Both the position numbers and the translations under genes were made by a program. The notes under the pieces are model-generated. The model was not told the origin of the DNA. It ran no database searches and saw nothing but the letters and a program-made list of their open reading frames with translations. 64,000 nt of DNA from a virus (taxonomy: Duplodnaviria; Heunggongvirae; Uroviricota; Caudoviricetes). Location of the stretch: IMG/VR virus record IMGVR_UViG_3300035682_000012, positions 6,073-70,072 of that record; one strand, given 5' to 3'. Of the stretch, positions 14,559 to 46,008 are shown piece after piece (position 1 is the first letter of the stretch; each line of letters opens with the position of its first letter).

Positions 14559-15752
14559 CTAAAACTTTAAGTGTTCTCGTAAGTGTGTATCAAATATAAG
14601 CCCATTACAATACTCTCTATTCTCATCCGCGATACCCATAGCAACCTCAATACGTTCTTTCCACTCACTATCACTCATATCCCTTAGCCACTCTATATTA
14701 CGGATTAAAGCGGGAATCCAACTACTATCGTATTGTTCAATCCGTTTTGAAATATCCCAATTAAAGTATATATCCCATAACTCATCCGTATATAGAGAAC
14801 GATAGGGAGTAAGTAAATTGCTTTCCATTAACTTATGTGCTAGAGGGTCAGTATGTATAAAGGGTTTACCTAAGTATAATAGCTTAATAGTTTTCTCATT
14901 GAACTTAATAAGATGTAAATGGGGAGATATAATAGGGAATGTTTCATACACTACTTCCATCTGAGAGTGTATAGTATGTTCTAAAAATTGATGTGTATAT
15001 GTGTTTCCATTCACTCCATTGTTTTGATTAGGATTAGCTAACTGAGGATTAAAATGGGGAGAAGTGTAGTTTAATAACGGCAAGTGTACTTTATTATATG
15101 TAGGTATAGTATTCGTTGTAAACTTTAATTCTACCTTATCATTTTGGAGAAAGTGTTTTGCTAATCCTATCCTTACCCTATCCGTCAACTTATTAATATG
15201 TAGACCTACTCTATGCTTTTTAGGATGATGTTTAAATACCTCACTACCATAGAAAAATATCTCACCCGGAAATTGGCCATTGTTATAATAGCTTTGTAAT
15301 GCTACCTTATTAGAAAAGATAAAATTATTGTATTTGATTAGGGGTATATCCCAAATTATCTTTACACCCTTCATTTTCTCTATTCGTTCTAATAAAGTAG
15401 TTGATGTTCTTGTTTCATTCAACATAAAATAATCTTCGGTATGTTTTGCTACAACAATTAGGACCTTTGTAGTTTCATCTAAACCCTCTAACCTATCTAA
15501 TAGAGGAAGGTAATCCGATTCCATTACACCGATAGATATGAGTAATACATTAACCCAACCCGGTCTAAATGTGCTTGTAGTGATATGTGTTAGATTATTA
15601 TATTCCCATAAGAAGTTATACCCATCTAATCTAAAATTACGGGTAGTATGGTTAGAGGACCCGAGACGGGATATATTTTTTATCTCATCCTTTGTCCAAA
15701 AATAGGGTTCTATTGATTGCCAATCCGCAATGAAGTTTACATTTATATCCAT
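14559..15752 (-). CDS. GT10-family fucosyltransferase-like glycosyltransferase, paralog
   Basis: 'EVVYETFPI ... FNEKTIKLLYLGKPFIHTDP' FucT-like motif; clear paralog of 15743..17029. Confidence 0.55.
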   Translation of the reverse strand: MDINVNFIADWQSIEPYFWTKDEIKNISRLGSSNHTTRNFRLDGYNFLWEYNNLTHITTSTFRPGWVNVLLISIGVMESDYLPLLDRLEGLDETTKVLIVVAKHTEDYFMLNETRTSTTLLERIEKMKGVKIIWDIPLIKYNNFIFSNKVALQSYYNNGQFPGEIFFYGSEVFKHHPKKHRVGLHINKLTDRVRIGLAKHFLQNDKVELKFTTNTIPTYNKVHLPLLNYTSPHFNPQLANPNQNNGVNGNTYTHQFLEHTIHSQMEVVYETFPIISPHLHLIKFNEKTIKLLYLGKPFIHTDPLAHKLMESNLLTPYRSLYTDELWDIYFNWDISKRIEQYDSSWIPALIRNIEWLRDMSDSEWKERIEVAMGIADENREYCNGLIFDTHLREHLKF

Positions 15753-17029
15753 CCTAATTCTTTTATCCTACCAAATATTGAGGTGTTATAATATACATCT
15801 TCGAAGTGTTTAATATTTTCTTTAGCGATAAGGTTTGCCTCATTTATCAAATCGTTATATTCCATTTCATCCATATCTAACAATTGTTGGATTCTCTCAA
15901 ACAATAAATCTAACCACATTGTGTTACCTACCTCTATGTAAGTATCTTTATTGAAATAACTAGCATTATACATTTGTAATAACTCCGGTCCTAATAAGCA
16001 ATCATATTGTTTAAACCCATACTCTTTTACTAAATGATACATAACAGGATCAGTATTAATAAAAGGTTTACCTAATAAAATATTCTTTAATATTTTTTCA
16101 GTAGGTTTTCTATGTGCCTTTGATGTTTCTTTGGTATTAGTTTCATATACTATATCGATATCTGAATTGATAAATAGTTTAGCTAACCCTAAGAAATAAT
16201 TTGGTGGGTGATACCCATGCTCTGCGTTTTTGTTTGGATTGTACCTTAGTGTACTACTTCGTTCTATAAAGTAAGAATCATGCTCCATATACTTTTCTAA
16301 TGGATAATTAGTTTCACTTAATAATCTATTATGATGTACGAACTGATGTTTATAGTTAATAGTTAAAAACATTTTAGGATGTGATATATAATCCGTAGTA
16401 ACAAATAGTTTAACCAGTCTATACCTTTCACCGATACCATTACCGATTGTACCCATATGAAACCCAATTCGTTTATCTTTTTTTAATCTACTGAATACAT
16501 CTTTGTTATAATAGAAATTAGTAATACCATCCCCACTCATTTCTTTTTGTAAATTAATATAATCGTAGAAATATATTTTAGGTTCAAACACTGCCGTCTC
16601 TGTATTAATCAATGGTGCGTTATGTATAACCTTTATATTATTACATTTAGAAATTTTATCAAACATTATATCCTCAATCTCACCTCTAATACTAAATATG
16701 TTTTGTTCTAAATTACCCCCAATGATTATAATTTTTACGTCCGTATTGATATATTTGTTTACTAAATCACATAATGGTTGATAATCCTCTGCAAACATTC
16801 CTATCTTTATAATATGAATTGTGTCACTACATAAATCCGTATCAGGTATAGGTTTACCTACAACGTGCTCAATGGTATATCCACCCCACTCACATTTTTG
16901 TTCCATAAAATTTTTGGTAAGGTCTTTGATTTCATCCAATTCTGCGTATGTGAAAAGTAACCCATTATCCTGCCGTTGATAGAAATTTATTTTCTTCATT
17001 GTAACATATTTAGTTTGTGTACTACACAT
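15743..17029 (-). CDS. GT10-family fucosyltransferase-like glycosyltransferase, paralog
   Basis: 'DIVYETNTKE ... PTEKILKNILLGKPFINTDP ... EYGFKQY'. Confidence 0.55.
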   Translation of the reverse strand: MCSTQTKYVTMKKINFYQRQDNGLLFTYAELDEIKDLTKNFMEQKCEWGGYTIEHVVGKPIPDTDLCSDTIHIIKIGMFAEDYQPLCDLVNKYINTDVKIIIIGGNLEQNIFSIRGEIEDIMFDKISKCNNIKVIHNAPLINTETAVFEPKIYFYDYINLQKEMSGDGITNFYYNKDVFSRLKKDKRIGFHMGTIGNGIGERYRLVKLFVTTDYISHPKMFLTINYKHQFVHHNRLLSETNYPLEKYMEHDSYFIERSSTLRYNPNKNAEHGYHPPNYFLGLAKLFINSDIDIVYETNTKETSKAHRKPTEKILKNILLGKPFINTDPVMYHLVKEYGFKQYDCLLGPELLQMYNASYFNKDTYIEVGNTMWLDLLFERIQQLLDMDEMEYNDLINEANLIAKENIKHFEDVYYNTSIFGRIKELGWI

Positions 17030-18707: not shown

Positions 18708-19112
18708 TTAAGCCCAGTACATTATAAGGATATTCTCGACCTGCTTATTACCTAATCCCATCGCCTTCAATTCACGTTTAACCGATGGTATAAATTTCTT
18801 ATCAATCTGCCCGTAGCTCATAGGGTAGTCAGAAATGATACGAGTAATTTGAGCAGACTCTTTTTTCAACATACTAAAAAACGCACACGCCTTTAAAATT
18901 TCGGGTTTGTTTCTACATACTACCTTATGCATACGACCCATAAAATCCTTAAACATTACTATTGAATTAGGTTTTACCGCGTTACTCATTTTAGTAGCAG
19001 AAAAATTAACATAAACAGGTCTCTCGTTACGAGCAGTACTATAAGCTTTGTCAGTAAATTCATTTGTCATTTTGTTATTCATATATAAAATTTTTGTTAT
19101 GTGAGGAGTCAA
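18708..19112 (-). CDS. hypothetical protein (134 aa)
   Basis: Minus-strand ORF, preceded by repeated intergenic element C. Confidence 0.5.
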   Translation of the reverse strand: MTPHITKILYMNNKMTNEFTDKAYSTARNERPVYVNFSATKMSNAVKPNSIVMFKDFMGRMHKVVCRNKPEILKACAFFSMLKKESAQITRIISDYPMSYGQIDKKFIPSVKRELKAMGLGNKQVENILIMYWA

Positions 19113-19378
19113 ACCTTCGACTCAATACATAAAGATAACCCTTTTTCGTGGACTTTTAACACGTTTTAGGTACTATTTTAAAAATTCTTTATTGACTATC
19201 AACGAGTTACGTCACCAAATATGTGGGACCGGCATAAGTCATTGACGCTGAACCACTTACATATGCTACTGAAAATCAATGACTTATGTATTTCACCCCT
19301 TCATATTAGAAAAAATCTAAATATATTCAATTTTATTAGATAATTTTCATTTCAAAGCGGTGCTATTTTAAATAATAT

Positions 19379-19744
19379 CTAACGAAACAAATCTCGTTTA
19401 CATTTCCATTTCAATTTATCCGCGAGTTCATTGGCTTGAATCTCAAATGGATTTTCATGGTAATCAAATTTTTCATCGTATTCGTAGTATTTCTTTGTAC
19501 TTTGTTTGTAGTGTGCCCATTCATGTATAATAGTATGAATGATATCAATTACAGATTTATGATTGCTTTTATAAACTGAAATTATATTATCTTCGAAATC
19601 ATAATCACCACTACTATCGTCCTCTGCAATCGTTGCCCACTCTAATGCCGGCAAAGTGTGTCTTCTATAATTCAGACCAGCATTACGTTTGCACCAATTC
19701 ATAACTCTTAGAGCATCCTTTCTTTTGAATTGTTTTATTGTCAT
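19379..19744 (-). CDS. HExxH-motif protein (putative zinc metallopeptidase-like)
   Basis: 'IIHTIIHEWAHYKQ'. Confidence 0.45.
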   Translation of the reverse strand: MTIKQFKRKDALRVMNWCKRNAGLNYRRHTLPALEWATIAEDDSSGDYDFEDNIISVYKSNHKSVIDIIHTIIHEWAHYKQSTKKYYEYDEKFDYHENPFEIQANELADKLKWKCKRDLFR

Positions 19745-20346
19745 TTCGGTCAGTTTTAAAATAAACGGGTTAGGTGGTCGCTATTTTGAAGGGGTAAGTA
19801 TAAAGGGAGTAACCAAGCAACCATTTGAGAATAGTATTTATTCTGTCCTAACCCGTTATAACTAAGATACGATAATTTATTTAATCTACCAAATTATATT
19901 GAATCTTTTTGTGTGGGGTATGTGTGTAAAAATAGTCTCTAAAAAATTTTGCGGTCCGACTGAATGGATGGATAAGGTCTAAATGCCGTTGTGATACCTA
20001 TTGTTTCCTTTCCATTCTCTTTGTAACCCTTATTAGTGTTATATTGTGGGGGTTTGTGGGTATAAGTGGGAAATTATTGTACGATGGACCTTATTATTGC
20101 GTTATTTGGTATCAATATACATAAATAGGGATATGATACACTTATACCCGTTATTTGATACCATCTAATAAATGATACTATCTAATTCTTTTACTTCGCT
20201 CCTTATCCCATTGGTAAGTAAAGAAAGCTATGAATAGGGGTGTTATAATCCATTGATACCATTCTACCTTTGTTAATTGTGTAAAGTACAAAAGGAACAT
20301 AATTGTATTTAGTATTGCGAGTGTGAGTGATATGTTTTTATTCATA

Positions 20347-20673
20347 TTAATTATTCATTTGTAGTATTAACTCTATATTGTGTAGAAACATATCTTTCCA
20401 ACGGATTTGTGCAATTGTTAATTGTTTTCTACGTTGTGGCTCTAACATATTGTATAAGGTATAGTAATTATAAGTGTCCATACCTTTACCTTTTACTTTA
20501 TTCCTTTGTAGTATTAAGATTTCATCCCCTTTTGTAAATGTGTTATTAGTAGAATGGATATTGATTTGATAATAGTCTTCGTATTCATATACACCTTCTA
20601 TATTATACCCATCAGTTGTACGATGTAATACCCTTTCACCTTTCAGTTTACTTCTATTGTGTATTGTTAGCAT
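20347..20673 (-). CDS. MLTIKN-family small protein
   Basis: N-terminus MLTIHNRSKLKG; ~105 aa like its paralogs. Confidence 0.6.
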   Translation of the reverse strand: MLTIHNRSKLKGERVLHRTTDGYNIEGVYEYEDYYQINIHSTNNTFTKGDEILILQRNKVKGKGMDTYNYYTLYNMLEPQRRKQLTIAQIRWKDMFLHNIELILQMNN

Positions 20674-20775
20674 ATCCTTTACTTTATTAGTTTTATTATT
20701 TCTATATACACTACTATCATTATTAGTGTTATTATCATTACGCTTATAGTTAGTGTTAGTAGTGACATAGTATTC

Positions 20776-21024
20776 TTATACATTCCTTAGTTCCATACAT
20801 ACACTACATACATTATCTGAATCCTTTTTTATATTATGTATATTACAATATTGGGTTTCTTTACTATGTGTATTATATGTATTGTTATCTGAACTACCGC
20901 TACTATTTCCTTTGCCACTTTTTTCTCTTATCCAATTATACATCCAATCGTTTTGATTACTCATATCGATTATTTTTATATCTTTTTCCGTGTATCTATA
21001 ATTCATATCAATTATTTTTTCCAC
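20776..21024 (-). CDS. hypothetical protein (82 aa), C-terminal CxxC
   Basis: Minus-strand ORF. Confidence 0.45.
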   Translation of the reverse strand: MEKIIDMNYRYTEKDIKIIDMSNQNDWMYNWIREKSGKGNSSGSSDNNTYNTHSKETQYCNIHNIKKDSDNVCSVCMELRNV

Positions 21025-21311
21025 TCACCACTCTTTAATAAGTTTGTTATATAATCCATACTTTGTAATGTAGTAAGGTATACGGGTGCATCATACGTTT
21101 TACCTTTGTATATTACACACGTTGGATGCCATACCATACTACCATTATCTAATTCTAACTTATTCATATTATCTACGTTTGATTTGTTTATTGATTATCT
21201 TATTAAGGTATATAGTTGATACCCTACTTGCCTTACCCCTTTGCCTTATACCCCATATTAAATTATTGATTAAGAATATACTCTTTATACTATGTGCTCT
21301 ATTCATATTAA

Positions 21312-21641
21312 TTACATTTCAATTATTGTTTTCAATTCATACATCATACTATCCATCGTATCAATATTTTCTATTCTTATTATACATCTATTCAATACAC
21401 CTATTACGATATCAATAGAAGTTATCATATATTCATACTCACTCGCTCCATCCGGCCTTTCACGTCCTATCTTCATTGTCAATTCATTATTATGATTTTT
21501 TGAGAATGCATCGCTGGTCCCTATAATTATTTCATATGCCGATTTGTTTTCCCTTACATCTAATATCTTCCATGATTCGGTCATAGAATGTGTCATAATA
21601 TATTGACCTTTTAATTTCTTATAGTTTTGTATTGTTAGCAT
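21312..21641 (-). CDS. MLTIKN-family small protein (true start at internal MLTIQNYKKLKG)
   Basis: The ORF-table extension overlaps the next paralog; internal ATG gives a ~110 aa family-sized protein. Confidence 0.55.
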   Translation of the reverse strand: MLTIQNYKKLKGQYIMTHSMTESWKILDVRENKSAYEIIIGTSDAFSKNHNNELTMKIGRERPDGASEYEYMITSIDIVIGVLNRCIIRIENIDTMDSMMYELKTIIEM

Positions 21642-21646
21642 AAGGT

Positions 21647-21925
21647 TTATATTATATTTGCCATAAAATGTGTCATAGTTAGTAAAAACTTTTTGCAATC
21701 CAATACATCCTTTTTTTGTACCCACATTTGCTGCCCTTCATATGTCATACAATAGTAATCCTTATATGGATGATTGATTTGTGGTGGGTGTATACGGCTT
21801 AGAGTGACCTTATTTAGTGGGTATCCGTTATCAATCCAAAATACATACGCCCAATCAATTTCTTGCACTCTAACATTTACCTTTGTATAATTTCTTATCC
21901 TATCTATGTTATGTATTGTCAACAT
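21647..21925 (-). CDS. MLTIKN-family small protein
   Basis: MLTIHNIDRIRNY. Confidence 0.6.
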   Translation of the reverse strand: MLTIHNIDRIRNYTKVNVRVQEIDWAYVFWIDNGYPLNKVTLSRIHPPQINHPYKDYYCMTYEGQQMWVQKKDVLDCKKFLLTMTHFMANII

Positions 21926-22246
21926 TTATATTGCGTTTAATATTTGCTCAATTTCATTCCTAAATTTCTCGGGTGTGTTTAACCTTTCTTTTATATAATG
22001 AAATAGTAATCCATCAATTTCAATTCCATAAACATAACAATCTTTATTTTGGCTGTTATCAAACACTATACGTCCCTTTTTATGTAGGGTTATATTTTTT
22101 CTTACCAAATGTGGCGGTGATACCTCTCTTATTGAAAAATGTGTAACCTCACTCGTAGTATTATCCCAACCTTTGAAATACCATCCTTTGCCTTTTACAT
22201 TTAATGAATACCCATTTATTTTATGGATGTTTTTAAGTATTAGCAT
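21926..22246 (-). CDS. MLTIKN-family small protein
   Basis: MLILKNIHKINGY. Confidence 0.6.
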   Translation of the reverse strand: MLILKNIHKINGYSLNVKGKGWYFKGWDNTTSEVTHFSIREVSPPHLVRKNITLHKKGRIVFDNSQNKDCYVYGIEIDGLLFHYIKERLNTPEKFRNEIEQILNAI

Positions 22247-22550
22247 CTTCGTCTCTTTTTATATTTGCAATTATACAATTCATATAATAGATTAGCCCTA
22301 CGGGTGATATATCAATAGGGCGTATTAGGACCTCATATAATTTACCATTACGATTTGTTTTCATTCTATACATGCCCATTACTTCATCCTTATTCCTATC
22401 AAATGTAACGTACCATTGTGTTGATTTGTAATGGCCTACATTAGTTAGTACAAATTGATATTCGGTAGGGGCTTCAATTGCTTCATACACTTCCCACTTA
22501 TCCGTTATTTGTTTGCCGTTAATTTTTTCTATGTTTCTTATCTTTAGCAT
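22233..22550 (-). CDS. MLTIKN-family small protein
   Basis: MLKIRNIEKINGK. Confidence 0.6.
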   Translation of the reverse strand: MLKIRNIEKINGKQITDKWEVYEAIEAPTEYQFVLTNVGHYKSTQWYVTFDRNKDEVMGMYRMKTNRNGKLYEVLIRPIDISPVGLIYYMNCIIANIKRDEDANT

Positions 22551-22551
22551 A

Positions 22552-22851
22552 TTATTTCATTATCATTTCAACCGCTCTTATAAAAGTTTGTTTATTACTT
22601 ATTTGTTCTACCTTTAATAACATACTATTAATAGGAGTAGCTTCATTCCATATTATATAACCCTTATCCGTTTTAAATCTATTCAATACAATTTTAATAT
22701 CACTATACGTTTTATTTATATGTCTCAAATGAATATGATATTGTTCGTTACCCTCTTGATTCCAACTCCATGTGTTAAGTACATAATAAACTCCCGTACC
22801 ACCATCAATTCTTTGATTGATTAGTGTAAACATATTTTCTATTGTTAGCAT
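22552..22851 (-). CDS. MLTIKN-family small protein (start at internal MLTIENMF)
   Basis: Family N-terminus at an internal ATG; the conserved 'attgttagcat' on the + strand marks the start. Confidence 0.55.
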   Translation of the reverse strand: MLTIENMFTLINQRIDGGTGVYYVLNTWSWNQEGNEQYHIHLRHINKTYSDIKIVLNRFKTDKGYIIWNEATPINSMLLKVEQISNKQTFIRAVEMIMK

Positions 22852-22922
22852 TGTATATATAGTTTTTACTATCAAAAAAATTTAGGTAACGACACTTTTT
22901 TCCCCCAACCCCCGCCCGCCGT

Positions 22923-23099
22923 TATTTACTTATTCTTTTGTTTATTAAATTCTTCTATTAAACTTTCTATCATATCATCCCCTAAATGAATATTATGTAA
23001 GAATTTAATCATAGAATATTGTGCTAAATACATTGATGTGGATACTTTTTTATCCCCGTCTACTAATTCTATTCTAATTTGTGCTTCTGTATTTTCCAT
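22923..23099 (-). CDS. small hypothetical protein (58 aa, MENTEAQIRIELVDG...)
   Basis: ORF just below the table cutoff, filling the gap between two family members. Confidence 0.35.
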
Positions 23100-23110
23100 A
23101 TTATTTTGTT

Positions 23111-23434
23111 TTATTTACTGAAACTATCTAATTGTCCGCCTAACATACCAGGAAACATTTTGAAATCTAATAAACCTTTTGTTAGTGTTACACAATTACT
23201 ATTTTGGTCATTATACATTCGCCATTCGTTTGCTGTACTATCGAATTCATTATATCTTAATATTTTAAATTTTATATACTTTGGATGCTTTACTCCGAAT
23301 GATTTACCATAATCAAATCTAACTTTGATATTATAATCATATTTTAGTTCCTCTATACTCATTACTACCCAATGTGCATGCACTGTCTCTATTTTAGTTC
23401 CTTCTATCTTTTGTATATTACCTATTTTTAGCAT
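23111..23434 (-). CDS. MLTIKN-family small protein
   Basis: MLKIGNIQKIEGT. Confidence 0.6.
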   Translation of the reverse strand: MLKIGNIQKIEGTKIETVHAHWVVMSIEELKYDYNIKVRFDYGKSFGVKHPKYIKFKILRYNEFDSTANEWRMYNDQNSNCVTLTKGLLDFKMFPGMLGGQLDSFSK

Positions 23435-23435
23435 A

Positions 23436-23747
23436 CTATTCGTTTAACATTTTATCAATTGCTTGCTTTATAAAGTACGGGCTTATTTGATGTAAACTTA
23501 ACCACCTATTTATTTTAGTTTGGTCAAAATCTTTATACAATCTATAAACAGGTTCGTTTCTACCGCTTACATATTGGCTCTCTCTATTCAAATAAAATAT
23601 ATTTTGTATTTTACCATTTATAGAAACAGCAAATCCATATACATCTTTATAAGTATCAACTGCTTCAGTTGCCTTAATTATATGCCATTTGTAAGGTAGT
23701 GGTGATGTTATGTTTATTATCTTATCTATGTTTTGTATTTTTAGCAT
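23436..23747 (-). CDS. MLTIKN-family small protein
   Basis: MLKIQNIDKIINI. Confidence 0.6.
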   Translation of the reverse strand: MLKIQNIDKIINITSPLPYKWHIIKATEAVDTYKDVYGFAVSINGKIQNIFYLNRESQYVSGRNEPVYRLYKDFDQTKINRWLSLHQISPYFIKQAIDKMLNE

Positions 23748-23758
23748 ATCATTTTTAT

Positions 23759-24073
23759 TTAACCTAATGCAACTAATCTTAACTTGTCAATGAATATATC
23801 CATATTACCAATTTCTTTTGGTGTTATGTAGTATATGTGTCCCGTGCTACTATGTAATTTATAATCATAGTTACCATCACGTCCCACCTCATCCCTATCT
23901 AATGTGACCGTTATTGCCCATTTTCTATTAGTTAATTCAAATATGTATTTATGGTTTTTTGTAGTGAACATTGCTCCATCCATATCAAATTTTTCCTCAA
24001 CCCTTTCTACATAAAAGTTTTTCTTACCGAGTGTTTTATGCTGTATCTTATTTATGTTTTGTATTCGTAGCAT
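23759..24073 (-). CDS. MLTIKN-family small protein
   Basis: MLRIQNINKIQHK. Confidence 0.6.
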   Translation of the reverse strand: MLRIQNINKIQHKTLGKKNFYVERVEEKFDMDGAMFTTKNHKYIFELTNRKWAITVTLDRDEVGRDGNYDYKLHSSTGHIYYITPKEIGNMDIFIDKLRLVALG

Positions 24074-24074
24074 A

Positions 24075-24317
24075 CTATTTATTTAAAAACCATTTTCCAA
24101 ATTTGAATATCATTTTGAAAATACCAATTATTAAAATCATAGGTATTATCACCGGCCAAAATATAGAGAATGCAGTAAATGCTTGTTCATTACTATCCCA
24201 GTCATCCCATTCCATTTTACGATTATCATAATCAAATCCAATTTTCACTCCAAAGTATTTGAAAAATGTTAGTGTCAATAAAAATCCTATTATGTATATT
24301 GTTATTATTGTTATCAT
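24075..24317 (-). CDS. small membrane protein (80 aa, 2 TM)
   Basis: Hydrophobic segments IITIYIIGFLLTLTFF and WPVIIPMILIIGIF. Confidence 0.5.
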   Translation of the reverse strand: MITIITIYIIGFLLTLTFFKYFGVKIGFDYDNRKMEWDDWDSNEQAFTAFSIFWPVIIPMILIIGIFKMIFKFGKWFLNK

Positions 24318-24526
24318 ATGTTATTCCATTTATTTGCGAAGTTATTATCATTTTTAAGTAAATAATCAAACTCTTCTATTTTTAATATTCTAAATTTTCC
24401 GGTAGAGTCTTCCACTAACCAATTATCATAAAGCCAATCATCTAAATCACCTACATCTGATTTTCTCCATAGTTCGTCCATTCCGTTACCATAGTTATCA
24501 TATAGTGTTTCTAATGCTGTTTTCAT
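24314..24526 (-). CDS. hypothetical protein (70 aa)
   Basis: Minus-strand ORF, ATGA overlap with the next gene. Confidence 0.5.
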   Translation of the reverse strand: MKTALETLYDNYGNGMDELWRKSDVGDLDDWLYDNWLVEDSTGKFRILKIEEFDYLLKNDNNFANKWNNI

Positions 24527-24654
24527 TTTATTTCTTCGATTTTGATGCTTTAATCAATTTTGATGCTTTAATCAATAGTATTGTTATCCATACTACTGCC
24601 GTCAATACACATGCTATTTCTACTATCAATGCTATCGTTGCTATTGTTTTCATT

Positions 24655-25524
24655 CTATATAAATTTTATTATTGCTAAATCTTTTTGTTTTGCTTCTACC
24701 ATTATGTCCACTATGTTGCCGTATGTTTCAGGAATCCTTTCAATGAAATCACTATGTGCCTGTGGCTTACTACCCATCTTACTTTCAGAATAGTGAACTG
24801 CCGGTGTTATACCTTTCGGCCATGTACTCATAGCTAACTCTAATGCATCTTGCTCACTTAAATTTCCGGTATTGAATGTGTGATGATGATAATCAAATAC
24901 AATAGGTATCTTTATTGCATTGTGAATATACATTAAGTCTTTAACTGAATACATACTCGCCTTATCGTCATTCTCAATTGTTAATCTGCTCTTTACTGAA
25001 TCAGATAGTAGTTTAAAATTATCTATGAACCTATCCATCGCACTTTGCTTATCACCATACACTCCGTTACAATGTATATTGATTTTATTGTAAGGTGTTT
25101 TAGATAATCCTATCGCATCCATCAACCTACCATGCACTTCTAAATCATTTATTGTATTTTGTACTACCGCTTCTTTTGGTGAAACTAATACATTAAAAGG
25201 ACCTGGATGAAATGATAATCTTTGTCCATACTTTGTTGCTTTATCACCACATCTTTTTAGTATGATTGCAATTTCATTCCAATCTTTTAATTGTTCAAAT
25301 TGATATTCAGTAGCCCATGGCATCATATCGGAACTCATACGATACATCTTAATACCATTCTGCTCATTCCATTCTATAATCCGTTCTAAGTCCGCTACAT
25401 TTTGTATAACACAATCCGATACATAATCCAGTCCCTTTTCTAAAAAAGTTCTCTTAATCATTGTTCGGTTTGTAGTGACCTTTTTACCCAAACTCATATT
25501 AATACATGCATATCCTAAATTCAT
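24655..25524 (-). CDS. uvdE: UV DNA damage endonuclease (UvdE/Uve1 family)
   Basis: 'TIENDDK', 'VFDYHHH', 'MVEAKQKDLAI' and the overall TIM-barrel UVDE layout, co-linear with bacterial UvdE. Confidence 0.88.
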   Translation of the reverse strand: MNLGYACINMSLGKKVTTNRTMIKRTFLEKGLDYVSDCVIQNVADLERIIEWNEQNGIKMYRMSSDMMPWATEYQFEQLKDWNEIAIILKRCGDKATKYGQRLSFHPGPFNVLVSPKEAVVQNTINDLEVHGRLMDAIGLSKTPYNKINIHCNGVYGDKQSAMDRFIDNFKLLSDSVKSRLTIENDDKASMYSVKDLMYIHNAIKIPIVFDYHHHTFNTGNLSEQDALELAMSTWPKGITPAVHYSESKMGSKPQAHSDFIERIPETYGNIVDIMVEAKQKDLAIIKFI

Positions 25525-25694
25525 ACTTTCTTTGTTTTTCGTTTGAGTAATTCGGTTTCTATTTTAGATATTCTACCTTCCATAGAATGTATTTTAAATC
25601 TATGTATGAAATTACCTAATATTGTTTTAGGTATTCTAGCTTGCTCTGCAATCAATGATGCTTTCATTGCTCTTAGAATTTTTCTTAGTGCCAT
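25521..25694 (-). CDS. small protein (57 aa, MALRKILRAMKASLIAEQARIPK...)
   Basis: The ORF-table start is TTG-derived; the internal ATG at 25694 lies 24 nt downstream of the promoter-like motif. Confidence 0.45.
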   Translation of the reverse strand: MALRKILRAMKASLIAEQARIPKTILGNFIHRFKIHSMEGRISKIETELLKRKTKKV

Positions 25695-25715
25695 ACTATG
25701 AATTAGTTTATACTT

Positions 25716-25725
25716 AAAGATACGA
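25716..25725 (-). promoter_or_regulatory. promoter-like motif AAAGATACGA
   Basis: 24 nt upstream of the ATG at 25694. Confidence 0.5.
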
Positions 25726-25796
25726 AATATATATGAAACTATCAAAAAAAAATTAGGTTAAACGACCTTCGCTCAACCCCCGCCCCTTCCCGCTGA

Positions 25797-26180
25797 TTAT
25801 ATTGTTTGCATACAAATTATAATCTTATCCGTTGTGTCAAACTCATCTTTATTTAACCATAATGTGTGACCATTATATTCCAGTATATAACATCCATTTT
25901 CGGTTTGCTTTCTATGTAATAAGAAAGTTTCTATTTGGCTCATTTCTTTATTAGCCAATGTAAATTCATAATGATATTGATTCTCGTTTGCACCAATTAC
26001 TTTTAACCAATCACTATATTCTTGTCCGATTAATTGTTGCGGATTTTTTATTGTTAGCATATTATTTTGTTTTATCATTCGGTCATCAAACACACTCATA
26101 TCACATACATCGCACCAGTCAGTATCATCATAGTTAATTGGATTGTTGCATCTAATACAATCATGTACATTCATATCCAT
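25797..26180 (-). CDS. zinc-ribbon N-terminal extension fused to an MLTIKN-family domain
   Basis: 'CIRCNN ... CDVCDMS' (2x CxxC) in frame upstream of 'MLTIKNPQQLIG'. Confidence 0.5.
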   Translation of the reverse strand: MDMNVHDCIRCNNPINYDDTDWCDVCDMSVFDDRMIKQNNMLTIKNPQQLIGQEYSDWLKVIGANENQYHYEFTLANKEMSQIETFLLHRKQTENGCYILEYNGHTLWLNKDEFDTTDKIIICMQTI

Positions 26181-26500
26181 TTCATTTTTGATATATCTTG
26201 AATAATTGCATTCATATCAGTTGCTACCCAATTCCAATTCTTTATTAATACCTTATCTATATAACGAGTTTCTGTTGTCCTATAAACGTAACTATTAATT
26301 ATACCCCACATACCATACTTACCCTCAGGATTAGCTTCTCTTGCTAAATAGATAGAACACAATGGTATGCAATCCTTATCCCTTATTCTAAATTCATATA
26401 CCAATTTTTTTTCCTCTACATCATATATGGTGCAACGTTCAAACAGGAAAAAATCACTTTCTGTCATTGGGTTACCTATATAATTCTTTATTGTTAGCAT
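26171..26500 (-). CDS. MLTIKN-family small protein
   Basis: MLTIKNYIGNP. Confidence 0.6.
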   Translation of the reverse strand: MLTIKNYIGNPMTESDFFLFERCTIYDVEEKKLVYEFRIRDKDCIPLCSIYLAREANPEGKYGMWGIINSYVYRTTETRYIDKVLIKNWNWVATDMNAIIQDISKMKWI

Positions 26501-26501
26501 A

Positions 26502-26798
26502 CTATTTAATTATAAGTTCGGTAATTCGTTTTATCATTTTCCGCTTTGTATCGATTTTATTCTTTGCTAATAAACTTCGTTGAACATTTCCATTCTTATC
26601 CCAATACCATAATTCATATAATGCCGTGTCACCTCGTCCAATTGGTGTCCGCTCTAAACTCATTTCAAATCCAATGTTATGGTTATTAGCCACTACTATT
26701 CTATATTGAGTTTCAGTTTCCTCAACATTATGGATAAATACAGTCGTATCTCTAATCTTTGTATTTACAATTTCAATATAATTCTTAATTGTTAGCAT
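26502..26798 (-). CDS. MLTIKN-family small protein (start at internal MLTIKNYIEI)
   Basis: Internal ATG gives the family N-terminus. Confidence 0.55.
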   Translation of the reverse strand: MLTIKNYIEIVNTKIRDTTVFIHNVEETETQYRIVVANNHNIGFEMSLERTPIGRGDTALYELWYWDKNGNVQRSLLAKNKIDTKRKMIKRITELIIK

Positions 26799-27085
26799 AT
26801 CAATCCGTTTATACACCTAACTACATATCGCATATTTTTTAGTTGGTCTTTTGTTATTGCCATATACTCCGTACCATATGTTAGTATGAACAATCCAATA
26901 GGTGTAGGTTTGCGGCTTATAGTACAATATATAAAATAGTTATAACCACGATTATTTATACTGATATGATAATGATTGAGTGAACTTCTAATTTTATTTA
27001 TAGACCAACCATTCCCTACATCTGATAATACAATGTTCTCACTATTTTTTATCGTTATCCGATTTTGTTTCAATGTTGGCTGCAT
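26792..27085 (-). CDS. divergent MLTIKN-family member (..NRITIKNSENI..)
   Basis: Family-like length and 'ITIKN' near the N-terminus. Confidence 0.45.
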   Translation of the reverse strand: MQPTLKQNRITIKNSENIVLSDVGNGWSINKIRSSLNHYHISINNRGYNYFIYCTISRKPTPIGLFILTYGTEYMAITKDQLKNMRYVVRCINGLIC

Positions 27086-27329
27086 TTAAAAGTTCAGTTA
27101 GTAATTTATTACCATTAACATCTTTTTTCTTACTAAGATTAGTATTAATTTCTGATAAAATTTCTACACCCTTTGTGCTATCATGTTCTTTGATACCCGC
27201 TAACTTTTGTAAATGTTCTACAACTTCCGGTTCAGGTGCATACACTTTTGGATTCAATAAACGTTTTTGTTCTTGCTTTGCACCTACTAACCAACCGATA
27301 ATAAATGCCATAATTAATAATACTATCAT
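27042..27329 (-). CDS. small single-pass membrane protein
   Basis: N-terminal TM MIVLLIMAFIIGWLVGA. Confidence 0.5.
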   Translation of the reverse strand: MIVLLIMAFIIGWLVGAKQEQKRLLNPKVYAPEPEVVEHLQKLAGIKEHDSTKGVEILSEINTNLSKKKDVNGNKLLTELLNAANIETKSDNDKK

Positions 27330-27332
27330 AAT

Positions 27333-27638
27333 TTATTTCTTTTTATGTTTTTCTTTTAATGTTGTTATAATCACATTACGAACTTCTGCTTCAAATTCCT
27401 TACTATGTTCTCTCGCATAATCCGTTTGTGTTTTTGGTTTACTACCAATTGAGCCCATTGTGTCATCATTTAGTGAACTAGTTTTATACGGGTAAACTGC
27501 TCCTGTAATTTCCATATCAAAATACCCACCATCTTTTTTAATTTGATTGGTTAATTGTTTTGTACCTTGTTTTATTCCTACCATAAATGCAACACACCAT
27601 ACAATAATCAATACAATTAGTGTTATTATAATTTCCAT
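27333..27638 (-). CDS. small single-pass membrane protein
   Basis: N-terminal TM MEIIITLIVLIIVWCVAFMVGI. Confidence 0.5.
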   Translation of the reverse strand: MEIIITLIVLIIVWCVAFMVGIKQGTKQLTNQIKKDGGYFDMEITGAVYPYKTSSLNDDTMGSIGSKPKTQTDYAREHSKEFEAEVRNVIITTLKEKHKKK

Positions 27639-27979
27639 AACTTAGTTTTTTTCTTTTTTGGTTTAACAAATAAATTTATACCAATACCATGTTCATCACC
27701 CGATACTAAATCGTATGAACTATAAAGATATATTTTTTTATTCTTTTTATCAATGATTGCCCTATCAATATAAATCATTTGATATTGTTCATTCGTTTCC
27801 TTTTCAATTCTATTTTTCCAATGTTCTCTTTGCCATTCAACCAAATCTCTAAATTGATTGTAATGTATTGTGTCTCTATTTGGATACTGTGCATTTACTA
27901 AGCATACCCACAATAACGATACTAATAAAATTGCTATTACTTTTTTCATATTACTTTGTTTTACTTTTTTTGTTCTCAC
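27626..27979 (-). CDS. secreted/periplasmic small protein with signal peptide
   Basis: 'MKKVIAILLVSLLWVCLVNAQ' signal-peptide-like N-terminus. Confidence 0.5.
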   Translation of the reverse strand: MRTKKVKQSNMKKVIAILLVSLLWVCLVNAQYPNRDTIHYNQFRDLVEWQREHWKNRIEKETNEQYQMIYIDRAIIDKKNKKIYLYSSYDLVSGDEHGIGINLFVKPKKKKTKLWKL

Positions 27980-28060
27980 TTATTTTTTCATCTAATATTG
28001 TTATGCCAAATATAAGAATTGTCATTCCGCAAAATACAATCATTGAGTAATCCATATCAT

Positions 28061-28381
28061 TTAGTTTTTATGTGCTATACCTTTTTTATTAAATAAGTCA
28101 TCGTAGCTACCACTTTCGTTTTCAATAACTTCATCTTGTTCTAGTGAACCCATAACCCTTACTGCTTCTACAAATCCTTCGGTGAATATTAACTTTTCAT
28201 TTTCATCGCTACCACTATAAAATTGTGCAGCAAATCCAGTTAATGTTTCTAAGTTTTCGATTTGTTCTTTTAACTTATCCACACGTACTTGCTTAGACCA
28301 TTTACCCATATTGTTTACTGATTCATAGTATTTCCAATATTCTAATTCCTCTTTTAGTTTTTTTAATGCTTTTGTTTCCAT
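28061..28381 (-). CDS. hypothetical coiled-coil protein (106 aa)
   Basis: Minus-strand ORF. Confidence 0.5.
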   Translation of the reverse strand: METKALKKLKEELEYWKYYESVNNMGKWSKQVRVDKLKEQIENLETLTGFAAQFYSGSDENEKLIFTEGFVEAVRVMGSLEQDEVIENESGSYDDLFNKKGIAHKN

Positions 28382-28397
28382 TGTATTTTTATTAATG

Positions 28398-29039
28398 TTA
28401 AAAAGGATTTGATGGTGTATGTAATTTTAATTCATCAATTTGTCTTTGTAACTCTTTTATTGTATCTACTATTGAACCATGTGTATATGTTGTATTACCA
28501 TTAGTGTAAACAATATTAGTTCCATTTGTAGTTATACCGGGTGAATGAACACCATGTGTTGGTGCTGATGTTAATTGTCTACTTAACATTTCATCAATTA
28601 TTTCCTCATACCTTACTCTAAATAAAGCAATAGTTCTAATATCAACTAATTCTATTTTGTGTTTTATATTCAAGCCGTTGCCATCCAATAATTTAAGTAT
28701 GTGTTCACCATACGCAGGTGTTATGCCCCCACACCCCAATAATAATTCTAAATGCCATTTTGGTTTTTGTGGTAAGTTTAAATTTAATACATCTGCATAA
28801 TAACATTCACCTGTTGCATTATGTATTGGATTAACTATCGTATAACCTTTGTATGTAAACCCACTAGTCTTATCCCAATTCTTAATTTTCATAGGTTTCT
28901 TTAATTTACTTTTATTTGTTGGTACATCTTTGCCACCCCATACTCCTAATAAACAACTGATATGGTCATAATTAACTAAGTAATCATAATCCGTATTAGA
29001 TGTATCATTGCCACATATACTACATACCCATTGATTCAT
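28398..29039 (-). CDS. hypothetical protein (213 aa), N-terminal CxxC
   Basis: Minus-strand ORF. Confidence 0.5.
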   Translation of the reverse strand: MNQWVCSICGNDTSNTDYDYLVNYDHISCLLGVWGGKDVPTNKSKLKKPMKIKNWDKTSGFTYKGYTIVNPIHNATGECYYADVLNLNLPQKPKWHLELLLGCGGITPAYGEHILKLLDGNGLNIKHKIELVDIRTIALFRVRYEEIIDEMLSRQLTSAPTHGVHSPGITTNGTNIVYTNGNTTYTHGSIVDTIKELQRQIDELKLHTPSNPF

Positions 29040-29379: not shown

Positions 29380-30177
29380 CTATAAAGAATATCCATATAA
29401 TTGTGTTTCTATTTTAATAATAGGTATTTTTCCTATAATTGCACGGAGTTTTGGAGTATCTAATTCAATTCTGCTATTAGTATGATGATGACCTTTGTCT
29501 AAAATTGATTTAATTGCCAAATATAAAAAATTAAAATGTTTTTTTGATTCTATATCCATAGATACAAATTCTGGTATTAAATCTAATATTAGTTTGCATT
29601 CGTAATCCGTTTTAGGTAACGATAAATCTAAAAGATTACCATGCGAATATTGATATGTATTTGTAAAATTTTCTAAAAATGTTGAAATCATTTCCATATT
29701 TAGAAATGTATAATTAGTATTATATCCTTTAAAAAGAGAATCTTTTATTGATTTTGAATCAAAATTAAACTTATTTCGTTCAAACGCTAAAATTTCAAAT
29801 ATTTGTGGTTGATAATGTGTATCATCTATTTCGTACATTATCTTAGTATAGTTATTGATATATGATTCTATATCAGGTATGTTATATTTCTTTTTTAAAT
29901 TTAAAACATTTTCCGGTCCATCAATTGAATTCATAAACCAATTATACGTTGTAATAAATCTATCTATTGGATTTCTTGTAAAAATATAAAATTGCGTTTT
30001 TTCATCAAATGGATTAGGTGAATTATATAATATAGTAGCCTCCTCATATTTTATATTATTGTAATTAAAAAATAACATAAAGGTATTTATCATTTGTAAA
30101 CTACCTGTTTTATTAGTAAATTGTAGTGCAATATTATAATCTGGTAAAAAATATCCTTTCATTATAATATATCCCAA
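29380..30177 (-). CDS. sulfotransferase-like protein (carbohydrate-sulfotransferase-type motifs)
   Basis: 'FTNKTGSLQ' (5'-PSB-like) and 'IFTRNPIDRFITTYNWF' matching the 3'-PB 'RNPxDRxxSxY' signature. Confidence 0.5.
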   Translation of the reverse strand: MGYIIMKGYFLPDYNIALQFTNKTGSLQMINTFMLFFNYNNIKYEEATILYNSPNPFDEKTQFYIFTRNPIDRFITTYNWFMNSIDGPENVLNLKKKYNIPDIESYINNYTKIMYEIDDTHYQPQIFEILAFERNKFNFDSKSIKDSLFKGYNTNYTFLNMEMISTFLENFTNTYQYSHGNLLDLSLPKTDYECKLILDLIPEFVSMDIESKKHFNFLYLAIKSILDKGHHHTNSRIELDTPKLRAIIGKIPIIKIETQLYGYSL

Positions 30178-30989
30178 TTTTCATTTACATATCCATATAA
30201 AAACTCAGCAAACTTTATGTTGCCGAAATAACCAGGATGTAAATCGTTTAATATATCAGCACCTAATTCATCCTTTATAGTATATCCGTTTTTCATTATC
30301 CAATGATGAAAATCAGTATGCCCTTCTATATTTAATTCGTTTGATAATAATGATTTATCCAAAACACCTTTTAGTTTTTGACCACCTTCAAAATATATAA
30401 ATTTAATTTTATGGTATTTTAAAAATGTCAATAACATCTCTGCCTCTCTATTCATTTTAGCAACTTCAATATCATAATCTATAAAGTTATCTAAGTATTT
30501 TTCTAATGCACCATCTTTATTTGTATTTTTAAAATCACCATGGTGCCCATCCATATAATACCCACGTGTTGCGTATATATGGTCTCTTACACCATTCTCA
30601 TTAACTGAATGATTTACTACTACCCAACTATTTAGATTGGTTGAATACATATCTAATCTATGAAAGTATGCGGGTAATTCTAATAACAATAGTAACTTAT
30701 CTTTTTTATCCCAATTTCTTTTTACAAAATCAAATGCCTCTCTAACTGCTCTACCAGTTCCACCACCACTTGCTGCTTTGTTTTCTACCTTACATCCTAG
30801 CATATCTGCTAATCTACTAGCATATGTAACTTCTAATTGATTATCCCACCATACATTGTATTTTTCTTTGTAGATATCACGTACTAATGTTACCTTATCG
30901 TCTGCATACTTAATAGTTTCTAATCCGCCACCTGCACTATGTGAACATCCGGTTGCAAATACGATTTCTATATTATGTTTGTTTGTCAT
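30162..30989 (-). CDS. SGNH/GDSL-like hydrolase, paralog 3
   Basis: 'FATGCSHSAGGGLE' block I; C-terminal 'NDLHPGYFG' (DxxH). Confidence 0.6.
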   Translation of the reverse strand: MTNKHNIEIVFATGCSHSAGGGLETIKYADDKVTLVRDIYKEKYNVWWDNQLEVTYASRLADMLGCKVENKAASGGGTGRAVREAFDFVKRNWDKKDKLLLLLELPAYFHRLDMYSTNLNSWVVVNHSVNENGVRDHIYATRGYYMDGHHGDFKNTNKDGALEKYLDNFIDYDIEVAKMNREAEMLLTFLKYHKIKFIYFEGGQKLKGVLDKSLLSNELNIEGHTDFHHWIMKNGYTIKDELGADILNDLHPGYFGNIKFAEFLYGYVNENWDIL

Positions 30990-33284: not shown

Positions 33285-34079
33285 TTAATCTCCTTTTTCT
33301 TTTATATAAGTATTATGATTTATGTAATTAAGTATGTTTTTGGCTATAAATTTATGTCCAGTTTCTCCAAAATGTGAATCTTTTACTATTTTATTAGTTT
33401 CAAATTCAATAATCAAATCAGTATTCCAATCTATATGATTACTACATTCATATGCCGTTTCTACAATTCCTCTGTCACATTCAAATTTAATTAAATTAGG
33501 AAAATTTAATATAGATGTATTTTCTTTTATACACTGCTCTATATTTGGATAACTCCATAAAAATACATTTTTAGTTACATTACTTTTAATGTAATTTAAT
33601 AATGATAATATTATTACAACAGAATTTATCGATATCCAATCTTCAAAATCTAAATGTGCCATATAAAATTGACGATATTTATCATTATCATATTTTAAAC
33701 TACCGCCGGCTTGAAATGCAGTAGTTTCCCACTTTCCTTCATTGTTTTTATACGGAACTTCAAATCTATGATAATGTGTTAATTGAAATAATACAACATC
33801 ATTTTCTTTTATATTTGGTAGGTCTTTTAATAGCTTTTTAAATTGTTGTGAATTACTATCACCACCTTCTGCTCTTAATATCCAATCTAAGTTCAATTCA
33901 TTTGCTATTATTTCAAAAAATGGCATTCCCTTTCTACCTAACCATTTGGTATAGTCAGTTTCCATAAAATTAATATCATTCTTTATTCTAGGTAATCCTG
34001 GATCTTCAAAGTGTGAATATCCTAATAGATTGCCGGCACTATGTGAACATCCATATATGTATAACTTATCCATTTTCAT
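33285..34079 (-). CDS. SGNH/GDSL-like hydrolase, paralog 4
   Basis: 'YIYGCSHSAGN' block I; C-terminal 'DSHFGETGH'. Confidence 0.6.
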   Translation of the reverse strand: MKMDKLYIYGCSHSAGNLLGYSHFEDPGLPRIKNDINFMETDYTKWLGRKGMPFFEIIANELNLDWILRAEGGDSNSQQFKKLLKDLPNIKENDVVLFQLTHYHRFEVPYKNNEGKWETTAFQAGGSLKYDNDKYRQFYMAHLDFEDWISINSVVIILSLLNYIKSNVTKNVFLWSYPNIEQCIKENTSILNFPNLIKFECDRGIVETAYECSNHIDWNTDLIIEFETNKIVKDSHFGETGHKFIAKNILNYINHNTYIKEKGD

Positions 34080-34749
34080 TTATGTATTTGTGTATCATTT
34101 CTGCAACTCGTCTATGTGATTCCGTACTCATATGACCATCTTGCATTTCACCACTTTCCGCCAAAGTTGTTAATTTATAATGCTTAGTGTATCTACCCAA
34201 TGTATTAAATTGTTCATCACCAAATTTTATTGTAACTTTTGAATTTACATCCTCTCTAAAAAAGTATTCGTAATCTTTACACATCCAATCTTCATAGAAA
34301 AACACATAATATTTAAATCCAATCAATTTACTTAATTCTTTTAAGAAAATATGTGTTTGTATTATTGGATGTTGTGATTTTAGGTCTGTAATTTTATACC
34401 AACTTTCATTATTAATATCATTTGGATTTGGATTAATTCCTTTACGTTCTGCCCATGCACCGTTGTATATTTCTTTTTGCTGTGTATCATACCAAACGGA
34501 CCTACTAAAATGTGTAAATTGTACTATTAGTAAATCATCTTTTTTTATGTTATTGATATTTTTAAAGATTTCGGTAACAATACTATCATTACCTTGTCCA
34601 CTCTTATCCGGTTGATTATATTTTAAATCAAACCATTCACTTAAATATTTTCCATATGGTTTTATACCATCGGTTTTTGCTTCATCTTTCCAAATAGTAG
34701 TAGAATGTGAACATCCAAATATCCAAATATTATTTTGTTCCATTTTCAA
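34066..34749 (-). CDS. SGNH/GDSL-like hydrolase, paralog 5
   Basis: 'WIFGCSHSTT' block I; C-terminal 'DGHMSTESH'. Confidence 0.6.
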   Translation of the reverse strand: MKMEQNNIWIFGCSHSTTIWKDEAKTDGIKPYGKYLSEWFDLKYNQPDKSGQGNDSIVTEIFKNINNIKKDDLLIVQFTHFSRSVWYDTQQKEIYNGAWAERKGINPNPNDINNESWYKITDLKSQHPIIQTHIFLKELSKLIGFKYYVFFYEDWMCKDYEYFFREDVNSKVTIKFGDEQFNTLGRYTKHYKLTTLAESGEMQDGHMSTESHRRVAEMIHKYINENG

Positions 34750-35461: not shown

Positions 35462-35478
35462 TATTTAGTATTAATATA

Positions 35479-35745
35479 CTACCATTCAATCAACTTAGCA
35501 ATAGGCCATGCTGGATTTGAAATACTTACTAAATGTGCTTCTTCTACTAATCTTTCTTTTAATTCATCATCTTCGATGTCTAAAAAATTAACATGTTCGT
35601 ATTTCACTAATTCGTCTTCAGCAATTGTTATTGTTGAAAATGTATTATCTTTATTTAATACAATAAGTCCAAATAATTTTGCTTCTACTAATTCTACATT
35701 TCCAGCGTGCTCTAAAAATGGTCCAAATGCTTCTAAATTTATCAT
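35479..35745 (-). CDS. hypothetical protein (start at internal MINLEAFG)
   Basis: The ORF-table extension overlaps the kinase gene; the internal ATG removes the overlap. Confidence 0.45.
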   Translation of the reverse strand: MINLEAFGPFLEHAGNVELVEAKLFGLIVLNKDNTFSTITIAEDELVKYEHVNFLDIEDDELKERLVEEAHLVSISNPAWPIAKLIEW

Positions 35746-46007: not shown

Positions 46008-46008
46008 A

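Follow-up and report, generated by a model that had tools for sequence, protein, structure and literature searches.

Two tandem arrays of a small-protein gene family

The DNA analyzed here, hereafter the window, is a 64,000-nucleotide (nt) stretch of a Caudoviricetes virus (IMG/VR record IMGVR_UViG_3300035682_000012, positions 6,073 to 70,072) that carries two tandem arrays of small genes whose products begin with variants of the peptide MLTIKN. An initial annotation of the sequence had described about 14 paralogs at 20347 to 27085, a second array at 45165 to 47941, and at least 18 MLTIKN-like open reading frames (ORFs). This proved close. ORF lists, a six-frame motif scan, and a hidden Markov model (HMM) gave 17 clear members, all on the minus strand, with 13 in the first array and 4 in the second, plus a probable 18th at 28398 to 29039. 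The HMM built from the members recovered the 17 ORFs at E values of 1e-18 to 1e-25, and the next-best stop-to-stop segment of the window scored E = 0.29. The family genes are packed stop to start.

As had been described, the remainder of the proteins is diverged and conserved in length. Members are 87 to 116 amino acids (aa) long. Compared in pairs, they have a median identity of 20% at full length, 50% in residues 1 to 12, and 16% past residue 12. Net charge ranges from −5 to +6, and no signal peptides or transmembrane segments were seen in the member sequences. The annotated fusion of one member to a zinc ribbon is real (CIRC...CDVC, then ...NNMLTIKNPQQ). The genes are listed below with the evidence for each; pLDDT is the predicted local distance difference test score of an AlphaFold2 model, pTM is the predicted template modeling score, and L-numbered loci, here and throughout, are related viral contigs.

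20347 to 20673, minus strand: member, 108 aa, MLTIHNRSKL (HMM, E = 7e-24; leave-one-out HMM without the N terminus, E = 5e-7; AlphaFold2 with an ortholog-only alignment, pLDDT 85.7)
21312 to 21641, minus strand: member, 109 aa, MLTIQNYKKL (motif scan, HMM, leave-one-out HMM)
21647 to 21925, minus strand: member, 92 aa, MLTIHNIDRI (motif scan, HMM, leave-one-out HMM)
21926 to 22246, minus strand: member, 106 aa, MLILKNIHKI (motif scan, HMM; broader HMM, E = 3e-31)
22233 to 22550, minus strand: member, 105 aa, MLKIRNIEKI (motif scan, HMM, leave-one-out HMM)
22552 to 22851, minus strand: member, 99 aa, MLTIENMFTL (motif scan, HMM, leave-one-out HMM)
23111 to 23434, minus strand: member, 107 aa, MLKIGNIQKI (motif scan, HMM, broader HMM)
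23436 to 23747, minus strand: member, 103 aa, MLKIQNIDKI (HMM; whole cassette missing from the closest relative, L002)
23759 to 24073, minus strand: member, 104 aa, MLRIQNINKI (motif scan, HMM, leave-one-out HMM)
25797 to 26180, minus strand: fusion, 127 aa, of a double-CxxC zinc ribbon (26061 to 26180) and a family domain, MLTIKNPQQL (25797 to 26060) (ORF list, HMM)
26171 to 26500, minus strand: member, 109 aa, MLTIKNYIGN (motif scan, HMM, leave-one-out HMM)
26502 to 26798, minus strand: member, 98 aa, MLTIKNYIEI (AlphaFold2, pLDDT 87.9, pTM 0.78)
26792 to 27085, minus strand: member, 97 aa, with an internal motif that lacks Met (MQPTLKQNRITIKNSENI; NRITIKN) (HMM, leave-one-out HMM)
45165 to 45503, minus strand: second-array member, 112 aa, MLTLNNIEKL (ORF list, HMM, leave-one-out HMM)
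45684 to 46007, minus strand: second-array member, 107 aa, MLTIKNIEKM (ORF list, HMM, leave-one-out HMM)
46326 to 46676, minus strand: second-array member, 116 aa, MLTIKNFNEL (ORF list, HMM, leave-one-out HMM)
47612 to 47941, minus strand: second-array member, 109 aa from the ATG (MKLTIKNFEKL), in an ORF open back to a TTG at 47968 (ORF list, HMM, leave-one-out HMM)
28398 to 29039, minus strand: probable divergent 18th member, 213 aa, with a zinc ribbon, a ...PMKIKNWDKTSG... domain, and a C-terminal extension (hhalign)

The product of 28398 to 29039 is colinear with the family across 102 columns in hhalign (E = 5.7e-4, at a probability of only 29%), and its L021/L022 ortholog matches the family HMM at E = 3e-4; on these alignments it is a probable divergent member. 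Three small proteins of the second array (46680 to 47207, 48302 to 48667, and 46009 to 46272) were ruled out as members by hhalign. The first of them, 175 aa long, carries a SWIM-type zinc finger at its C terminus that narrowly misses the Pfam cutoff (E = 8e-4). A membrane protein at 24075 to 24317 that starts with ATGATAACAATA (MITI...) resembles the family by chance, as the starts of its orthologs differ.

Homology past the N terminus and predicted fold

The initial annotation had considered the outcome in which the members fail to align outside the N terminus and have unrelated folds, and our results point the other way. For 16 of the 17 members, leave-one-out HMMs with the first 12 residues removed ranked the left-out member first among window ORFs, with E ≤ 1.2e-4 for 14 of these; only the member at 21926 to 22246 was missed. 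By these profile comparisons, the members are true paralogs that are homologous past the N terminus.

Two copies that are 23% identical to each other were modeled with AlphaFold2. The model of 26502 to 26798 came from a mixed paralog alignment (pLDDT 87.9, pTM 0.78) and that of 20347 to 20673 from its own orthologs only, a group of at least 60 sequences (pLDDT 85.7, pTM 0.80). Both show the same order of elements, with a coil at residues 1 to 6, a helix at residues 7 to 10, five strands, and a C-terminal helix. The predicted family fold shown by these models is a two-layer alpha+beta arrangement in which an N-terminal arm (M-L-T-I-x-N) and a one-turn helix (x-x-K-[IL]) precede five antiparallel strands and the C-terminal helix. 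In a conservation profile of 165 family sequences filtered to <60% identity, conserved hydrophobic and hypervariable positions alternate on every strand, and therefore one face of the predicted sheet is conserved and the other free to vary. The loops are hypervariable, as is one sheet face. In the predicted structure, it is probably the conserved face against which the arm and helices lie.

Conservation of the N-terminal motif

The motif columns of the 165-sequence profile are M1, L2 (95%), T3 (74%), I4 (100%), N6 (98%), K9 (74%), L/I10 (95%), and G12 (51%), and position 5 is variable, with at least eight residue types. Elsewhere, the conserved columns are an aromatic residue at 22, V/I24, E29, Y34 (98%), I/F36, L52, R54 (94%), Y65, and hydrophobic positions of the C-terminal helix. 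The conservation of L2, I4, N6, K9, and L/I10 around a variable position 5 suggests that the motif is a packed element. The first ten residues are predicted to be structured, as an arm plus a short helix, with a mean pLDDT of 78 to 86 in both models. The idea that they form a conserved first beta-strand stood in part: they are the first structural element and show packed-type conservation, but DSSP assigns residues 1 to 6 to an extended arm and not to a strand.

The peptide also persists where it no longer marks a translation start. Orthologs of 26792 to 27085 in L001 to L004 retain CGG-ATA-ACG-ATA-AAA-AAT, and metagenomic homologs with N-terminal extensions of 40 to 70 residues retain FLTIEN, VLTIEN, VLTIKN, KLKIHN, or YLTIKN, all without Met. 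The motif lies 10 to 70 residues inside longer proteins, such as the zinc ribbon fusions, P0157, P0169, P0183, and P0195. In the clade of L012 to L036, TTA often stands in place of CTA, and the peptide is unchanged. Together with the models, these observations support in substance the view that the motif is an integral, packed part of the predicted domain under protein-level selection and not a detachable tag.

The closest functional analogy is the internal protein (IP) locus of the T-even phages. This hypervariable locus encodes proteins of about 100 aa, several per genome, with a conserved leader of about 10 residues and diverse bodies; the conserved 5′ end of the IP genes can act as a recombination handle, and T4 IPI is an antirestriction effector (PMC3012670, PMC9026906). 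The propeptide ends with an L/I-x-E (or S/A-x-E) site, behind which a prohead protease cuts (PMC9026906). The window family is similar in the small size of its proteins, the conserved N terminus of about 10 residues, the diversity of the rest, the multiple copies, and the hypervariable locus. It differs in having homologous bodies of one predicted fold, an N terminus that is modeled as part of this fold, no L/I-x-E site, and a motif that also occurs internally.

These parallels, including recombination at the conserved 5′ end, are what favors a capsid-targeting role, which the initial annotation had raised. On that account, the members would be packaged internal or ejected proteins whose N terminus docks onto the scaffold core and whose bodies are injected antidefense effectors; the invariance of I4 and N6, which exceeds the needs of core packing, would fit recognition by a common partner. 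Most of the evidence argues otherwise, and we consider this role improbable. Unlike the T4 IPs, the bodies are homologous with one predicted fold, and the N-terminal segment is modeled confidently within the domain. No conserved Glu that could serve a protease of the L/I-x-E type was found at positions 5 to 12 (of 105 sequences, 16 have Glu at position 5, 9 at position 8, and 8 at position 9, and the 165-sequence profile concurs), and the family has no prohead protease site of the T4 or phiKZ type as defined previously (PMC9026906). Most members start with the motif, but it is internal and Met-less in 26792 to 27085 and in the fusions. Thus, of the four features that define capsid-targeting sequences and internal proteins, a cleavage site and unrelated mature parts are both lacking in the window family. 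No head genes or prohead protease were recognized among the window proteins scanned.

A repeated DNA element at the gene starts

The gene starts are also similar as DNA, although not to the degree first described, when one 10-mer was said to recur at each start: the exact sequence TTGTTAGCAT is present at 6 of 17 family starts. With up to one mismatch, the 12-mer ATGCTAACAATA has 14 matches in the window versus 1.4 expected from shuffles, and 11 of the 14 are family starts. An 18-nt junction element that includes the upstream stop codon, AATRRTATGCTAAMAATA, occurs 9 times versus 0.44 expected. Overall, the 12 to 18 nt around each start (AATRRT-ATG-CTA-ACA-ATA) are near-identical.

Synonymous codon choice points in the same direction. 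Among Leu codons in the window, 66% are TTA and 11% CTA; 14 of the 16 window members, by contrast, use CTA as codon 2. Of the Leu2 codons in 91 distinct members, drawn from the window and from related loci, 68 are CTA, compared with 15% CTA for Leu elsewhere in those genes, and Thr3 is ACA in 92% and Ile4 ATA in 87% of members. These counts take in orthologs, and P values computed from them are inflated; the CTA bias stands without orthologs because the 16 window paralogs, which are saturated elsewhere, show it alone. Codons 5, 6, and 9 are not homogenized, and Asn6 is AAT or AAC at about 50/50.

Two candidate sources of the bias were rejected. The HpaI-type site GTTAAC is scarce in the whole window (8 observed versus 21 ± 4 expected from shuffles), which may reflect restriction-site avoidance, but such avoidance does not produce the CTA bias, as CTA at codon 2 is equally strong where codon 3 is not Thr (21 of 27). 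An initiation context peculiar to this family and lacking a Shine-Dalgarno (SD) sequence was rejected because the whole phage lacks SD sequences: an SD-like sequence is absent in 82 of 89 nonfamily genes, and upstream regions are A-rich. Translation initiation, one of the explanations first offered for the motif, is therefore not its main cause, since the Met-less internal copies keep x-L-T-I-x-N and SD sequences are missing phage-wide; the bias at codons 2 to 4 nonetheless exists.

A stronger form of this argument would put the nucleic acid signal first, with the 12 to 18 nt at the starts serving as a recombination or translation-reinitiation element and the peptide as a by-product. The synonymous bias (75% versus 15% for CTA, with the ACA and ATA preferences), the abundance of the 18-nt element, the three cassette junctions that fall within it (described below), and the stop-to-start coupling of genes without SD sequences would all fit. 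However, the peptide is retained when the DNA changes (TTA, TTG, or CTT at codon 2; internal copies without ATG; fusions with F/V/K-L-T-I-x-N), and codons 5, 6, and 9 vary both synonymously and nonsynonymously inside the motif. A phage that generally lacks SD sequences needs no special initiation device for one family, and GTTAAC avoidance, as noted, fails to account for CTA. We thus view a purely nucleic acid origin as quite unlikely. The motif mirrors both protein selection and a repeated DNA element, so that the refuting case named in the initial annotation, a motif arising trivially from a DNA repeat and not from selection on protein, does not hold as stated.

Cassette exchange and locus plasticity

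Comparison with related contigs showed that the motif is a recombination junction, which the initial annotation had not foreseen. The closest relative of the window is L002, with 99% identity in the neighboring UV-damage endonuclease UvdE. L002 is 100% identical on both sides of the zinc ribbon gene and carries a different family body in it. The limits of this swap are just past the ATGCTA of the internal motif (26060) and just beyond the stop codon (25797), and the body present in the window shares 96% identity with a free-standing L004 gene (11306 to 11569) and 86% with one in L037. In a second event, 23436 to 23747 is present in the window and missing in L002, and the indel spans exactly from motif copy to motif copy. 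Third, one cassette distinguishes L037 from L038, and the crossover falls between codons 6 and 7, such that the L037 gene has codons 1 to 6 from the upstream copy and codons 7 onward from the downstream copy. The body of 26502 to 26798 is likewise a patch of 85 to 96% identity that starts right behind the motif, within DNA that is otherwise 100% identical to L002.

The number of members per 20-kb locus is 1 to 5 in more distant relatives, 9 to 14 in L001 to L004, and 16 to 21 in L037 and L038; across the richest relatives it spans 11 to 21. Copy number and composition differ between close relatives because the junctions of cassette deletions, insertions, and swaps fall in the start repeat, which probably acts as a crossover point. 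Other indels between the window and L002 do not touch the motif, which is one recurrent junction in a generally plastic region and not the sole one.

Plasticity of this kind is familiar from the hyperplastic regions of T4-like and jumbo phages and the gene-accordion arrays of large DNA viruses, in which small, fast-evolving, noncore genes are clustered and vary in presence or absence, auxiliary metabolic genes are found at the same spots, and short direct repeats drive duplication and deletion. Here, in contrast, one family supplies 13 genes in a 6.7-kb stretch, and the exchange repeat lies inside coding sequence at a conserved start. Swapping of a body behind a constant zinc ribbon N terminus at a short coding repeat, seen in one event, recalls shufflons and other cassette systems with constant N termini; the repeats in the window are direct, however, and not inverted. 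No dedicated recombinase was recognized nearby among the proteins scanned. The events resemble ordinary recombination, homologous or by microhomology, that became fixed in separate lineages, and do not resemble programmed switching.

Two further features of the locus are recorded here. The array contains a slot next to UvdE (24655 to 25524), at 24075 to 25745, which in the window holds a small ORF for a membrane protein and one other small ORF. The slot is occupied by a heme oxygenase and a ferredoxin-dependent bilin reductase in L001 (4282 to 6633) and by a flavodoxin-like FMN reductase in L084 (8228 to 9671), and it resembles a hotspot for the insertion of auxiliary metabolic genes. A G-rich element on the minus strand at 25735 to 25800 and 22865 to 22930 (GGGGCGGGGGTTGRGSG...GTCGTT.ACCTAA, then a T run and GATAGT) has three matches in the window versus 0.03 expected, and both copies are kept in L002. 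The copy at 25735 to 25800 forms a terminator-like hairpin (z = −2.8) and adjoins the right junction of the cassette swap; the other copy folds poorly.

Selection and distribution

For clear ortholog pairs between the window and L001 to L004 plus L037, the ratio of nonsynonymous to synonymous substitution rates (dN/dS) along the array was 0.06 to 0.67, mostly 0.2 to 0.5, compared with 0.05 to 0.25 for UvdE. Judging from these ratios, the family copies are maintained genes under purifying but relaxed selection, evolving faster than the neighboring enzyme.

Profile searches recovered 249 proteins and 396 clusters at 50% identity. All matches are metagenomic "hypothetical proteins" of about 90 to 125 aa, and in nearly all of them the domain begins at residue 1. 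Of 80 viral contigs that share the neighboring UvdE, only those with UvdE at least about 72% identical carry the family near UvdE. The family is a lineage-specific expansion, restricted to a single clade of uncultured phages. No family member was found in a limited scan of cellular genomes. A single Flavobacterium match in that scan, which used genome representatives, was spurious, a chance similarity over 21 residues with no HMM match.

Searches of curated collections were negative. The best curated-family match was to a WYL domain at a subthreshold E of 0.19, and neither Pfam with all 86 aligned sequences nor a profile comparison with PDB sequences returned anything at or above threshold. 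Megablast of the array against GenBank phages gave no match, and tblastn of one member and the HMM consensus against the same phages gave nothing below E = 4. A literature search on tandem paralog families in jumbo phages found nothing relevant. By these sequence searches, the family is previously undescribed and cleanly delimited.

Genome context

The GC content is 24 to 35% across the window and about 29% around the arrays, GC skew is negative throughout, and the minus strand carries every long ORF. No tRNA genes were found in the window. The best match of the ATP-dependent DNA ligase (44038 to 45147), at 47%, is in a 595-kb uncultured phage, followed by T4-like phages of alphaproteobacteria; the nearest relatives of a CobS-like ATPase are in a 484-kb uncultured phage and a Microcystis phage. 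Most large window proteins have no match in PHROGs or Pfam, and related contigs reach 247 to 251 kb. The window thus looks like a piece of a large phage genome of an uncultured lineage. A Bacteroidetes-type promoter pattern, tried for host inference, was not enriched; sigma-70 promoter and terminator scans across the array gave counts at or under the shuffle expectation, and Rfam had no match over 19000 to 29000.

Other genes in the window are duplicated as well. A second tandem paralog family lies at 33285 to 37950 (five genes of 223 to 264 aa, 21 to 28% identity), one gene of which has a subthreshold GDSL-lipase match. Interleaved in it is a PfkB-like gene (35781 to 36512) whose 25 upstream nt match exactly the 25 upstream nt of 36509 to 37282. 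The genes of this family and the further paralog pairs (blastp E, 1e-5 to 1e-31) are as follows.

33285 to 34079: second paralog family
34066 to 34743: second paralog family
34730 to 35461: second paralog family
36509 to 37282: second paralog family
37279 to 37950: second paralog family
548 to 1384 and 30162 to 30989: paralog pair
5432 to 6607 and 54580 to 55575: paralog pair
14559 to 15752 and 15743 to 17029: paralog pair
38778 to 39935 and 55670 to 56926: paralog pair
4911 to 5432 and 8719 to 9300: paralog pair

Duplication seems to be widespread in this genome. Another repeated start region is found at the adjacent small genes starting at 43270 and 43508 (minus strand), where 22 nt before the ATG are near-identical (aacaaaattaaatagatagt ATGAAAT).

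Possible role of the family

Tandem homologs, varying copy number and content, and purifying selection, all found here, are the marks of a tandem multigene family of a phage accessory region. Systems near to the family in fold are the adaptors with a two-layer alpha+beta sandwich, such as type III secretion chaperones (SycH, ExsC, ShcA, and the CesT family), YbjN-like and frataxin-like proteins, and the TriTu immunity protein; the alpha-beta-beta-beta-alpha-beta-beta-alpha fold, homodimer, and associated effector or secretion system typical of the CesT/SycH type were not found for the family. In the reading that we prefer, and to which we give about an even chance, each paralog would be a cytoplasmic binder or inhibitor built on the common scaffold, with its own surface for its own target among host or competitor proteins. 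Such diversified binders would serve host takeover or antidefense, and the recombination-prone start and array would let the repertoire turn over.

Alternatively, all copies might share one biochemical role, for example, as a sponge for a small molecule or nucleotide signal or as an oligomeric structural or adaptor protein, with copy number reflecting dosage and drift. A single common site could be made up of the conserved polar residues N6, K9, E29, Y34, and R54; all dN/dS values are below 1; and the other tandem paralog families suggest a general tendency to duplicate. Yet the paralogs are only about 16% identical outside the motif and span net charges of both signs, whereas dosage arrays normally keep similar sequences. 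That individual paralogs are recognizable as orthologs across relatives further argues against their being interchangeable, and we find a common role unlikely.

Similarly doubtful, in our estimate, is a more elaborate possibility, in which the N-terminal arm (M-L-T-I-x-N...K-[IL]-x-G) together with R54, E29, and Y34 would be a common docking handle that delivers about 20 effector surfaces to one machine, through capsid loading without proteolysis or at one host hub. As DNA, the handle would be kept as a built-in crossover site, making the array a self-shuffling effector library in which the targeting signal is also the recombination signal.

Several points weigh against diversified binders as the role of the family. 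Gene-wide dN/dS exceeds 1 in no ortholog pair, and therefore an arms race is not demonstrated. The family has no match in Pfam, PHROGs v4, NCBIfam, PADLOC, PDB sequences, or GenBank phages. The ends of high-scoring segment pairs are enriched near motif starts only about 2.5-fold (10 of 114 versus about 4 expected, a rough estimate from events that are not independent). I4 and N6 vary less than ordinary core positions, at which I, V, and L interchange, and therefore the N terminus may have a role more specific than packing. How the arm packs in the models is something that we infer from pLDDT and the conservation pattern.

What is distinctive here is the coupling of a structural N terminus to a recombination junction, in a well-documented family and not as a new mechanism. 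Large uncultured phages hold many unannotated small genes, and this family is definable among them, with 396 clusters and two confident predicted models. It is a concrete test case for whether a conserved N terminus in a phage multigene family serves targeting or folding. Between near-identical genomes, reshuffling of the repertoire can be seen directly, at a defined 12- to 18-nt repeat within coding sequence. Should the copies turn out to be binders for antidefense or host takeover, they would amount to a compact, naturally occurring library on one scaffold and would provide a model of effector diversification by cassette exchange.

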